A stretch of 64,000 nt of DNA from Escherichia coli 042. Lineage in GTDB: Bacteria; Pseudomonadota; Gammaproteobacteria; Enterobacterales; Enterobacteriaceae. Made by a program: the position numbers and the translations under genes. The stretch lies in the NCBI RefSeq assembly GCF_000027125.1, contig NC_017626.1; one strand, given 5' to 3'. Below are positions 6,697 through 62,146 of this stretch, piece by piece; position 1 is the stretch's first letter; every line of letters begins with the position of its first letter. Below the pieces are notes generated by a model. That model worked only from the letters and a program-made list of their open reading frames with translations. It had not been told where the DNA came from and did not search any database.

Positions 6697-7749
6697 ATGA
6701 AAAAAATACCCTGCGTGATGATGCGAGGTGGAACCTCGAGGGGCGCGTTCCTGTTAGCGGAACATTTACCCGAAGATCAAACGCAGCGCGATAAAATATT
6801 GATGGCAATTATGGGTTCCGGTAACGATTTGGAAATTGACGGTATTGGCGGCGGTAATCCGCTGACCAGTAAAGTCGCCATTATTAGCCATTCCAGCGAT
6901 CCGCGTGCTGATGTCGATTATCTGTTTGCTCAAGTTATCGTCCATGAGCAACGTGTCGATACCACGCCTAACTGCGGCAATATGCTGTCTGGCGTTGGGG
7001 CATTCGCCATTGAAAATGGTTTGATTGCAGCGACTTCGCCAGTTACCCGCGTACGTATCCGCAACGTCAATACGGGTACGTTCATCGAAGCTGATGTGCA
7101 AACGCCAAATGGTGTTGTCGAGTACGAGGGTAGCGCCAGAATTGACGGCGTACCGGGTACTGCCGCACCGGTTGCGCTCACTTTCCTGAATGCCGCCGGA
7201 ACCAAAACCGGAAAAATCTTCCCGACTGATAATCAGATTGATTATTTTGACGATGTCCCGGTGACCTGTATCGATATGGCGATGCCAGTTGTCATTATTC
7301 CTGCTGAATATCTGGGAAAAACAGGCTATGAATTACCGGCGGAGCTGGATGCCGACAAAGCATTATTAGCCCGCATTGAATCTATCCGTCTACAAGCGGG
7401 TAAAGCAATGGGCTTAGGCGATGTCAGTAATATGGTTATCCCTAAACCTGTGCTTATTTCTCCAGCGCAGAAAGGCGGAGCAATTAATGTGCGTTATTTT
7501 ATGCCGCATTCTTGCCATCGCGCGCTGGCGATAACCGGTGCTATTGCCATTTCCAGTAGTTGTGCATTGGAAGGCACCGTCACCCGACAAATCGTCCCTT
7601 CTGTAGGATACGGCAATATCAATATTGAACACCCCAGTGGTGCGCTCGACGTTCATTTAAGTAATGAAGGTCAGGATGCCACGACGTTACGCGCATCTGT
7701 TATTCGGACAACCAGAAAAATATTTTCCGGTGAAGTTTTTCTTCCCTGA
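6697..7749 (+). CDS. ybhH: PrpF/AcnD-accessory family isomerase YbhH
   Basis: 350-aa ORF; recalled YbhH sequence and gene order. Confidence 0.85.
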   Translation: MKKIPCVMMRGGTSRGAFLLAEHLPEDQTQRDKILMAIMGSGNDLEIDGIGGGNPLTSKVAIISHSSDPRADVDYLFAQVIVHEQRVDTTPNCGNMLSGVGAFAIENGLIAATSPVTRVRIRNVNTGTFIEADVQTPNGVVEYEGSARIDGVPGTAAPVALTFLNAAGTKTGKIFPTDNQIDYFDDVPVTCIDMAMPVVIIPAEYLGKTGYELPAELDADKALLARIESIRLQAGKAMGLGDVSNMVIPKPVLISPAQKGGAINVRYFMPHSCHRALAITGAIAISSSCALEGTVTRQIVPSVGYGNINIEHPSGALDVHLSNEGQDATTLRASVIRTTRKIFSGEVFLP

Positions 7750-58134: not shown

Positions 58135-58876
58135 TAAACAAGCCATTGCAGCGGCATTTGGTCGGGCAGCCGCGCACTATGAGCAACATGCGGATCTACA
58201 GCGCCAGAGTGCTGACGTCTTACTGGCAATGCTTCCACAGCGTAAATACACCCACGTACTGGACGCGGGTTGTGGACCTGGCTGGATGAGCCGCCACTGG
58301 CGGGAACGTCACGCGCAGGTGACGGCGTTAGATCTCTCGCCGCCAATGCTTGTTCAGGCACGCCAGAAGGATGCCGCAGACCATTATCTGGCGGGAGATA
58401 TCGAATCCCTGCCGTTAGCGACTGCAACCTTCGATCTTGCATGGAGCAATCTCGCGGTGCAGTGGTGCGGTAATTTATCCACGGCACTCCGCGAGCTATA
58501 CAGGGTGGTGCGCCCCGGAGGCGTGGTCGCGTTTACCACGCTGGTGCAGGGATCGCTCCCTGAATTACATCAGGCGTGGCAGGTGGTGGACGAGCGCCCG
58601 CATGCTAATCGCTTTTTACCGCCAGATAAAATCGAACAGTCGCTGAACGGCCTGCATTATCAACATCATATTCAGCCCATCACGCTGTGGTTTGATGATG
58701 CGCTCAGTGCCATGCGTTCGCTGAAAGGCATCGGTGCCACGCATCTTCATGAAGGGCGCGACCCGCGAATATTAACGCGTTCGCAGTTGCAGCGATTACA
58801 ACTGGCCTGGCCGCAACAACAGGGGCGATATCCTCTGACGTATCATCTTTTTTTGGGAGTAATTGCTCGTGAGTAA
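58121..58876 (+). CDS. bioC: Malonyl-ACP O-methyltransferase
   Basis: Trimmed to [17 protein letters not shown]; SAM-binding motif LDAGCGPG. Confidence 0.95.
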
Positions 58877-59546
58877 ACGTTATTTTGTCACCGGAACAGA
58901 TACCGAAGTGGGGAAAACTGTCGCCAGTTGTGCACTTTTACAAGCCGCGAAGGCAGCAGGTTATCGGACGGCAGGTTATAAACCGGTCGCCTCTGGCAGC
59001 GAAAAGACCCCGGAAGGCTTACGTAATAGTGACGCGCTGGCGTTACAGCACAACAGCAGCCTGCAGCTGGATTACGCAACGGTAAATCCTTACACCTTCG
59101 CAGAACCCACTTCGCCGCACATCATCAGCGCACAAGAGGGCAGGCCGATAGAATCATTGGTAATGAGCGCCGGATTACGCGGGCTTGAACAACAGGCTGA
59201 CTGGGTGTTAGTGGAAGGTGCTGGCGGCTGGTTTACGCCGCTTTCTGACACTTTCACTTTTGCGGATTGGGTAACACAGGAACAACTGCCGGTGATACTG
59301 GTAGTTGGTGTGAAACTCGGCTGTATTAATCACGCGATGTTGACGGCACAGGCAATACAACACGCCGGGCTGACTCTGGCGGGTTGGGTGGCGAATGATG
59401 TCACGCCTCCGGGAAAACGTCACGCTGAATATATGACCACGCTCACCCGCATGATTCCCGCGCCGCTGCTGGGAGAGATCCCCTGGCTTGCAGAAAATCC
59501 AGAAAATGCGGCAACCGGAAAGTACATAAACCTTGCCTTGTTGTAG
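58869..59546 (+). CDS. bioD: Dethiobiotin synthetase
   Basis: Probable GTG start giving (M)[17 protein letters not shown]-loop; overlaps bioC stop. Confidence 0.93.
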
Positions 59547-59705
59547 CCATCCTGTATTTGGTTAAATTGCGAGCGAGATCGCGTCTTCGATTGACTGCAA
59601 TTTAACCAATTAAATTCTAAAATAATCACGAAAAAAATTTTACTTCCGCATCATGCGATGTATGTGGGAATTGCCCAGGCGGCGGGGGATAGGGGCTGCA
59701 GACAG

Positions 59706-59728
59706 TTATCCACTATTCCTGTGGATAA
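59706..59728. promoter_or_regulatory. Inverted pair of DnaA boxes in the bioD-uvrB intergenic region
   Basis: TTATCCACT (59706-59714) and TGTGGATAA (59720-59728), the latter a perfect TTATCCACA box. Confidence 0.6.
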
Positions 59729-60032
59729 CCATGTGTATTAGAGTTAGAAAACACGAGGCAAGCGAGAGAATACGCGGCTTGCACGCGAATTGGCGTTAAA
59801 GACGGCTCAAAGAAATATCTTTTATTTTTTAACTGGTTAGATAATTGCAATGGCAGTCACTGAAGAGGCATCTCTTGCCATAAAACTGTCATCACTCATC
59901 TTGACAAATGTTAAAAAAGCCGTTGCTTTGGGGATAACCCGGTAAGGCCGGAGTTTTATCTCGCCACAGAGTAAATTTTGCTCATGTTTGACAGCGGAGT
60001 TTACGCTGTAACAGAAATATTATGGTGAGAAA

Positions 60033-60055
60033 CTGTTTTTTTATCCAGTATAATT
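60033..60055 (+). promoter_or_regulatory. uvrB LexA box and -10 element
   Basis: CTGTTTTTTTATCCAG (CTGT-N8-ACAG-like) followed by TATAAT. Confidence 0.75.
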
Positions 60056-60124
60056 TGTTGGCATAATTAAGTACGACGAGTAAAATTACATACCTGCCCG
60101 CCCAACTCCTTCAGGTAGCGACTC

Positions 60125-62146
60125 ATGAGTAAACCGTTCAAACTGAATTCCGCTTTTAAACCTTCTGGCGATCAGCCAGAGGCGATTCGACGTCTCGAAG
60201 AGGGGCTGGAAGATGGCCTGGCGCACCAGACGTTACTTGGCGTGACTGGCTCCGGGAAAACCTTCACCATTGCCAATGTCATTGCTGATCTTCAGCGCCC
60301 TACCATGGTACTTGCGCCCAACAAAACGCTGGCGGCCCAGTTGTATGGCGAAATGAAAGAGTTCTTCCCGGAAAACGCGGTGGAATATTTCGTCTCCTAC
60401 TACGACTACTATCAGCCGGAAGCCTATGTACCGAGTTCCGACACCTTCATTGAGAAAGATGCCTCGGTTAACGAACATATTGAACAGATGCGTTTGTCCG
60501 CCACCAAAGCGATGCTGGAGCGGCGTGATGTGGTTGTGGTGGCGTCTGTTTCCGCGATTTATGGTCTGGGCGATCCTGATTTATATCTCAAGATGATGCT
60601 CCATCTCACGGTCGGCATGATTATCGATCAGCGCGCGATCCTGCGCCGACTGGCGGAGCTGCAATACGCTCGTAATGATCAGGCATTCCAGCGTGGTACT
60701 TTCCGCGTTCGTGGTGAGGTGATTGATATCTTCCCAGCAGAATCGGATGACATTGCACTTCGCGTGGAGCTGTTTGACGAGGAAGTGGAACGATTGTCGT
60801 TATTTGACCCGCTCACCGGGCAGATTGTTTCCACTATTCCACGTTTTACCATCTACCCGAAAACGCACTACGTCACGCCGCGCGAGCGCATCGTACAGGC
60901 GATGGAAGAGATCAAAGAAGAACTGGCCGCCAGACGCAAAGTGCTGTTGGAGAATAACAAACTGCTGGAAGAGCAGCGGCTGACCCAGCGTACCCAGTTT
61001 GATCTGGAGATGATGAACGAGCTGGGCTACTGTTCCGGGATTGAGAACTACTCGCGCTTCCTCTCCGGTCGTGGACCGGGTGAGCCACCGCCGACGCTGT
61101 TTGATTACCTGCCTGCCGATGGGCTGCTGGTGGTCGATGAATCACACGTCACCATTCCGCAAATTGGCGGCATGTATCGCGGTGACCGGGCGCGTAAAGA
61201 GACGCTGGTGGAGTACGGCTTCCGCCTGCCATCAGCGCTGGATAACCGTCCGCTGAAATTTGAAGAGTTCGAAGCATTAGCGCCGCAAACCATCTATGTT
61301 TCGGCGACGCCGGGTAATTACGAGCTGGAAAAATCGGGCGGCGATGTGGTGGATCAGGTGGTGCGTCCAACCGGATTGCTGGATCCGATTATCGAAGTGC
61401 GGCCAGTGGCGACACAGGTCGATGATCTTCTATCGGAGATTCGTCAGCGAGCGGCAATTAACGAACGCGTACTGGTTACAACTCTGACCAAGCGAATGGC
61501 GGAAGATCTCACGGAATATCTCGAAGAACACGGCGAGCGCGTGCGTTATCTTCACTCCGATATCGACACCGTCGAGCGTATGGAGATTATCCGCGACTTG
61601 CGTCTGGGCGAGTTCGACGTGCTGGTGGGGATCAACTTACTGCGCGAAGGTCTGGATATGCCGGAGGTTTCGCTGGTGGCGATCCTCGACGCCGACAAAG
61701 AAGGCTTCCTGCGTTCTGAACGTTCGTTAATCCAGACTATTGGTCGTGCGGCGCGTAACGTTAACGGTAAAGCGATTCTCTACGGCGATAAGATCACCCC
61801 GTCAATGGCGAAAGCGATTGGCGAAACCGAACGTCGTCGCGAGAAACAGCAGAAGTACAACGAGGAACACGGTATTACGCCGCAGGGCTTGAACAAGAAA
61901 GTGGTCGATATCCTGGCGCTGGGGCAGAACATTGCTAAAACCAAAGCGAAGGGCAGAGGAAAATCGCGACCGATTGTTGAGCCGGATAATGTGCCGATGG
62001 ATATGTCGCCTAAAGCGTTGCAGCAGAAGATCCATGAACTGGAAGGGTTGATGATGCAACACGCGCAGAATCTGGAGTTCGAAGAAGCGGCGCAAATTCG
62101 TGACCAGTTGCATCAGCTGCGTGAATTGTTCATTGCCGCGTCGTGA
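60125..62146 (+). CDS. uvrB: Excinuclease ABC subunit B
   Basis: 673 aa; helicase motifs [12 protein letters not shown]. Confidence 0.97.

Follow-up and report, generated by a model that had tools for sequence, protein, structure and literature searches.

The window analysed here is a stretch of 64,000 nucleotides of Escherichia coli 042 DNA, which includes the gene order bioF-bioC-bioD-uvrB-yvcK. The last gene of bioBFCD, bioD (dethiobiotin synthase; 58869-59546, + strand), and uvrB (excinuclease ABC subunit B; 60125-62146, + strand) are separated by 578 bp (59547-60124), with the bioD stop codon ending at 59546 and the uvrB ATG at 60125, which agrees with the size of about 580 bp given in an earlier note on this DNA. 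The intergenic region is 100% identical to that of strain 118UI and was found in 5424 of 5426 complete E. coli genomes. It should be noted that two of the approximately 5,427 matches sit on plasmid-labelled records and that at least one genome has two copies; these cases may reflect mis-assigned replicons or duplications.

The region contains small open reading frames of 48 aa (+ strand), 45 aa (− strand), and 31 aa (+ strand), and the start of the 48-aa frame lies within the unconserved 5′ flank of the core of DnaA boxes described below. A scan of positions 59400-60250 against Rfam returned no family, the two matches obtained (E ~0.7) being at chance level and far under the gathering score.

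Inverted Repeat Downstream of bioD

Just after bioD, the perfect 13-bp arms TTGGTTAAATTGC (59558-59570) and GCAATTTAACCAA (59597-59609) enclose a 26-nt loop containing GATC and can form a stem-loop on the + strand (59558-59609). The earlier note was right that an inverted repeat lies here, but gave its length as 11 bp instead of 13 perfect base pairs and proposed no reading of it. None of the 300 simulated intergenic regions contained a repeat longer than 10 bp. The calculated folding energy of the + strand is −20.9 kcal/mol (z = −4.1), and the − strand folds equally well in E. coli, where the hairpin is single-copy.

The hairpin is confined to Escherichia, and three substitutions were found in its arms within the genus (two of them in E. 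albertii, the third in the NU14/NCTC9022 allele). Each of them pairs as G·U on the + strand, which is the sense strand of bioD, and would disrupt the pairing on the − strand; with three substitutions, the chance probability of this pattern is ~0.125, so the argument from strand-specific wobble is suggestive only. In E. albertii, the folding energy is −20.6 kcal/mol for the + strand vs. −12.4 kcal/mol for the − strand, and the arms vary less than the loop. We tentatively take the repeat for an RNA stem-loop that is specific to the lineage and located at the 3′ end of bioBFCD mRNA, which it may well be.

We also consider it possible, if rather doubtful, that the 13-bp repeat is not an RNA element but a palindrome bound by a protein at the DNA level, or a neutral lineage-specific relic. 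The AT-rich stem, the long loop of 26 nt, and the lack of a U-tract are consistent with this explanation, as are the equal folding of both strands in E. coli and the situation in Citrobacter, where the arms are not conserved, yet part of the loop is kept (only GCGAGCrrGATCkCG, with its GATC, is recognisable). The three substitutions that keep G·U pairing on the + strand only, the difference between the two strands in E. albertii, and the lower variability of the arms speak against it.

As an RNA element, the stem-loop would act as a terminator or a stabiliser of the bioBFCD transcript. Its AT-rich stem, its 26-nt loop, and its tail AAUUAAAUUCUAAAA, which is devoid of a U-tract, differ from those of a rho-independent terminator, and our terminator scan did not call it; it may still stabilise the 3′ end as a hairpin, or mark an end point set by Rho or by processing. 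In published long-read data, bioBFCD and uvrB belong to one maximal transcription-unit cluster, so that termination at the hairpin, if any, is leaky. No 3′ end of bioD is listed in the published Term-seq supplements consulted, which is uninformative, since the files may be incomplete and rich medium keeps the bio operon repressed; a literature search turned up no specific description of a terminator for the operon. We also weighed a likeness of the arms to the BirA operator bioO and discarded it, as the half-sites have the opposite polarity and match poorly.

DnaA Boxes Upstream of uvrB

Three DnaA boxes lie in the intergenic region. Box I, TTATCCACT (59706-59714, + strand), was found by pattern matching with one mismatch at position 9 and corresponds to DnaA-box7 in the numbering of the uvrB promoter. 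Box II, the perfect TTATCCACA (59720-59728, − strand), found in the same way, corresponds to DnaA-box6 and overlaps the weak LexA-box4. The two boxes are opposed across the 5-bp spacer ATTCC (59715-59719), which is nearly invariant across Enterobacterales, and they are enclosed by the 9-bp perfect inverted repeat GTTATCCAC / GTGGATAAC. Box III, TGTGTATTA (= TAATACACA; 59732-59740, − strand), or DnaA-box5, is separated from box II by 3 bp, shares its orientation, and has one mismatch (position 2) to TTWTNCACA.

Box II is the only zero-mismatch DnaA box within the 64 kb. A head-to-head pair with a 5-bp gap and no more than one mismatch per box occurred in 1 of 300 dinucleotide-matched simulated 64-kb sequences. 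The inverted pair at 59706-59728 with one perfect box, as described in the earlier note, is borne out by pattern matching; its view of the pair as functional-looking DnaA boxes upstream of a LexA-regulated uvrB promoter also stands, whereas box III had been overlooked.

Comparison with DARS1

DARS1 (DnaA-reactivating sequence 1) of E. coli K-12, published as a 101-bp element, was reportedly described by Fujimitsu, Senriuchi and Katayama in 2009. It is located upstream of uvrB and comprises three DnaA boxes, of which boxes I and II are opposed with 5 bp between them; the consensus is complete in box II and broken by a single mismatch in each of the other two (PMC6868365, PMC11724364). In the promoter numbering, DnaA-box7, DnaA-box6, and DnaA-box5 make up DARS1, which lies inside the promoter uvrBp3 (PMC6015884).

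The site in the window has each of these properties. Boxes I and II are opposed and 5 bp apart, as in the definition of the DARS core (PMC6868365); box III adjoins box II and is co-oriented with it, in agreement with the published double box of DARS1; and box II has the full consensus TT[A/T]TNCACA, from which boxes I and III deviate by a single mismatch each (PMC11724364). The site is also in the uvrB upstream region, overlaps uvrBp3, and is orthologous to the K-12 site. The window matches MG1655 with 100% identity between about 59700 and 59860, and the core corresponds to NC_000913.3 813,107-813,141. Because of the three-box geometry and the identity with this MG1655 segment, we conclude with high confidence that the head-to-head pair represents boxes I and II of DARS1, with box III as its co-oriented neighbour, and that the site is also the DnaA operator of uvrBp3; nothing observed contradicts the assignment to DARS1. 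In locus, core and 3′ flank sequence, box orientations, spacings, and mismatch pattern, nothing of substance distinguishes it from DARS1 of K-12.

Differences from MG1655 are limited to a few positions in 59650-59700 and scattered sites nearer uvrB. Variation, both with respect to MG1655 and among E. coli lineages, is concentrated in the ~50 bp directly 5′ of the core, and a sharp conservation boundary is seen at ~59700, beyond which the core and the 3′ flank are invariant.

The element is thus already known, both as DARS1 and as the DnaA operator of uvrBp3; characterisation of the two roles dates from 1985 and 2009. The earlier note had correctly recognised DnaA sites but had missed the DARS1 identity and, with it, the main known role, which is nucleotide exchange on DnaA and not only the regulation of uvrB, and had treated the element as untested, proposing DnaA ChIP or footprinting and reporter assays with box mutations, with absence of DnaA binding as the refuting outcome. 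All of these experiments have been published with positive results. In DnaA ChIP-seq, DARS1 is listed by name among the bound regions, with the double box cTAATACACAtggTTATCCACAg and a 16-fold coverage over the control (PMC11317965), and cTAATACACAtggTTATCCACAg is the reverse complement of positions 59719-59741 of the window, i.e., this exact sequence. DNase I footprinting revealed strong protection of DARS1 by ATP-DnaA, and a TG-to-CA mutation in box II increased the expression of uvrBp3-lacZ 5.9-fold, that is, de-repressed it (PMC6015884). The ChIP-seq data and the footprint rule out the absence of DnaA binding.

It should be noted that the table of PMC11317965 gives 813,331 as the peak coordinate of DARS1, which is ~200 bp off the core, though the double box listed is the core sequence. 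This coordinate falls exactly on a one-mismatch box, TGGGGATAA (59929-59937 in the window, MG1655 813,330-813,338). Either it was mistyped for ~813,131, or the peak summit is truly over the downstream boxes.

Conservation in Other Species

A pattern scan with GTTATCCAC-N7-GTGGATAAC, using one genome per species, returned at least 120 loci in at least 120 species, compared with fewer than 10 expected by chance according to our estimate. Among the matches listed, 117 loci from other species were usable for counting a third box, defined by at least 6 of 8 matching positions. At 82 of these 117 loci, a third box is located at a gap of exactly 3 bp, on one side only and never on both, while any other offset occurs at 0-5 loci. 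In an alignment of 17 Enterobacterales, the core AGTTATCCAC(T/C)ATTCCTGTGGATAACC(T/A)TGTG(T/C)ATTAG..TAGAAAA is almost invariant, and its 5′ side is unconserved.

The polarity relative to uvrB is also kept: box III is uvrB-proximal in 22/22 loci with uvrB nearby among the matches listed. The distance from the cluster to the uvrB start is 336-432 bp in Enterobacterales and Vibrio bivalvicida and ~1.7-1.8 kb in Alteromonadales. These comparative results bear out what has been published and bring nothing of a new kind, since a review has already noted the conservation of sequences like DARS1 and DARS2 in many proteobacteria (PMC10380432).

Several observations were made outside the uvrB context. 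A three-box cluster, GTTATCCACA-N5-TGTGGATAACCTTGTGAACAGAG, is highly conserved in Pseudomonas (loci L008, L009, L011, L028, L029, L034, L042, L053, L060, L079, and others). At L009, L053, and L079, it lies beside a gene for an FKBP-like lipoprotein and/or an ORF of ~150 aa, and no uvrB match was found near the cluster in these three loci. Two matches each to the head-to-head pair occur in Legionella, Stutzerimonas, Serratia, a Methylococcaceae MAG, and a Contendobacter MAG; such paired matches could be a DARS1/DARS2-like pair of elements. At locus L062 (Methylococcaceae MAG), a three-box cluster at 7549-7573 is located ~100 bp from where a 733-aa ORF starts; the N-terminus of this ORF, judged by eye, resembles the primosome protein PriA.

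uvrB Promoters

The LexA box (SOS box) of uvrBp2, CTGTTTTTTTATCCAG, of the form CTG-N10-CAG (60033-60048, + strand), is situated ~305 bp from the DnaA boxes, close to the distance of about 300 bp stated earlier; in the literature, it is quoted as AACTGTTTTTTTATCCAGTA (PMC6015884). The published weak DnaA-box1, TTATCCAGT (60041-60049), overlaps it. A consensus scan placed uvrBp2 and uvrBp1 within 60025-60086 (+ strand) with 10/12 matches each, consistent with PMC6015884; the −10 element of uvrBp2 is TATAAT (60049-60054), and uvrBp1 has the −35 element TTGGCA (60058-60063) and the −10 element TAAAAT (60081-60086). The same type of scan found no sigma-70-like site at uvrBp3.

Between uvrBp3 and uvrBp2 lies a further DnaA-like box with one mismatch, TTATCCCCA (+ strand TGGGGATAA; 59929-59937, − strand), which is conserved in Citrobacter. 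DnaA boxes 2-4 have been described between p2 and p3 (PMC6015884), and this box is probably one of them. In the same interval, the consensus scan alone indicates a terminator-like hairpin, CCGGTAAGGCCGG followed by AGTTTTATCT (59939-59961, + strand), which directly adjoins the TGGGGATAACC box. In Citrobacter, its T-run is kept and the stem sequence is different. This hairpin could attenuate transcripts from p3 ahead of uvrB.

DnaA and LexA are both repressors of the promoter uvrBp3, and a weak LexA site overlaps boxes II and III (PMC6015884). DnaA bound to the boxes and LexA bound to the weak overlapping site repress this minor promoter, and the site in this way couples the DnaA status to a fraction of uvrB expression.

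It is nevertheless very improbable that the boxes are only a transcriptional operator, through which DnaA and LexA act on uvrBp3, with no meaningful role in the DnaA nucleotide cycle. The DnaA footprint, the 5.9-fold de-repression of uvrBp3-lacZ, and the increased uvrB transcription in dnaA(A345S) cells (PMC6015884) would all be accounted for by an operator alone, and the fixed distance and polarity to uvrB at all 22 loci fit a promoter-linked role. However, a 70-bp DARS1 fragment releases ADP in vitro (PMC6868365), and changes in the copy number of DARS1 affect the initiation mass and the ATP-DnaA level: its deletion raises the initiation mass by ~20%, extra copies lower it (PMC5835720), and Delta-DARS1 cells show an increased size and a lower number of origins (PMC12371093). 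Moreover, the three-box geometry also occurs away from uvrB, in Pseudomonas, Legionella, and others. The operator and DARS roles are compatible, and both are documented.

A last explanation, that the 9-bp repeat GTTATCCAC/GTGGATAAC is an RNA hairpin or intrinsic terminator for bio read-through with an incidental likeness to DnaA boxes, is almost certainly wrong: a simple terminator scan does flag 59705-59729, with a 9-pair stem and a T-rich tail, but both arms fit the DnaA consensus, one of them perfectly, DnaA binding has been published in vivo and in vitro, box III itself makes up the tail CATGTGTATT, and the fixed 3-bp gap at 82 of 117 loci would be left unexplained. Since box III is conserved in position and outside the stem, we regard the flag as an artefact of two opposed protein-binding sites.

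The 3′ Flank of the Core

The DARS1 core is followed by a conserved flank of ~120 bp (59741-59860), delimited in the 17-species alignment and 100% identical to MG1655. It comprises the blocks TTAG..TAGAAAA, AAGCGAGAG..ACGCGGC, ATTG, and GTTAnATAA..CAA. The region holding this flank has been assigned to uvrBp3 (PMC6015884), and the degenerate box III′ that has been described for DARS1 (PMC6868365) should lie within it.

RNAalifold found no consensus RNA structure in the flank among the 17 species, and we dropped the idea of a structured leader of the p3 transcript on this result. By eye, a perfect IHF-type core, WATCAANNNNTTR, is present at the distal block in ~6/17 species, E. coli not being one of them; in an AT-rich flank, this may be a chance match. 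The motif GC(G/A)AGCGAGA is common to the loop of the post-bioD hairpin (GCGAGCGAGATCGCG, 59569-59578) and a block of the 3′ flank (GCAAGCGAGAGAATACGCGG, 59758-59767).

It appears unlikely that the conserved 3′ flank or the post-bioD hairpin contributes to DARS1 regulation. If they did, the blocks at 59741-59860 could be a module that sets the timing or strength of DARS1, e.g., by offering a binding site to a protein or by way of transcription from uvrBp3 that crosses the site, and the stem-loop could protect DARS1 against transcription reading through from the biotin operon.

Discussion

For the K-12 sequence, which is identical, release of ADP from ADP-DnaA with a resulting increase in ATP-DnaA and initiation has been published, and the same activity would be expected of the site in the window. 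According to the published mechanism, ADP-DnaA first occupies the perfect box II and then brings protomers to the two other boxes. On boxes I and II, the bound protomers make a head-to-head AAA+ contact that requires Gln208 and releases the ADP of both, and the protomer on box III, in a head-to-tail contact involving Leu290, supports the complex and releases no ADP. The apo-DnaA dissociates and rebinds ATP, which yields initiation-competent ATP-DnaA for the next round at oriC (PMC6868365, PMC11724364).

The second chromosomal element, DARS2, in the mutH upstream region, shares with DARS1 the core geometry of boxes I-III and the head-to-head mechanism of ADP release. Its core boxes are weaker, and it requires IHF and Fis sites and negative supercoiling (PMC11724364), whereas DARS1 is independent of IHF, Fis, and supercoiling and is moderately stimulated by DiaA (PMC6868365, PMC11724364). 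DARS2 is the dominant, cell-cycle-timed element, in contrast to DARS1, which is cofactor-free (PMC11724364) and has no documented IHF or Fis module.

Further relatives are less close to the site described here. A DARS of the ColE1 plasmid was reportedly described by Fujimitsu and Katayama in 2004. To judge from its description, it is a similar element of 70 bp with three DnaA boxes, two of which need the correct orientation for ADP release (PMC5835720); unlike DARS1, it belongs to a plasmid origin and is unlinked to uvrB. The DnaA-repressed promoters of dnaA, nrdA, mioC, and polA carry double boxes, and boxes II and III in the window likewise form a double DnaA box with a 3-bp spacing, an arrangement that predicts DnaA occupancy in vivo (PMC11317965). 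Those promoter sites, however, are not known to have the opposed box I that drives head-to-head ADP release in DARS1. We know of no cell-cycle control of DARS1.

The value of the identification lies in the correct filing of the element, which spares a repetition of the published ChIP, footprinting, and reporter experiments. DARS1 is one of two chromosomal sites that regenerate ATP-DnaA, and it helps to set the cell mass at which replication starts. Its overlap with a uvrB promoter ties the control of replication to the SOS response and excision repair, a connection that is already established.
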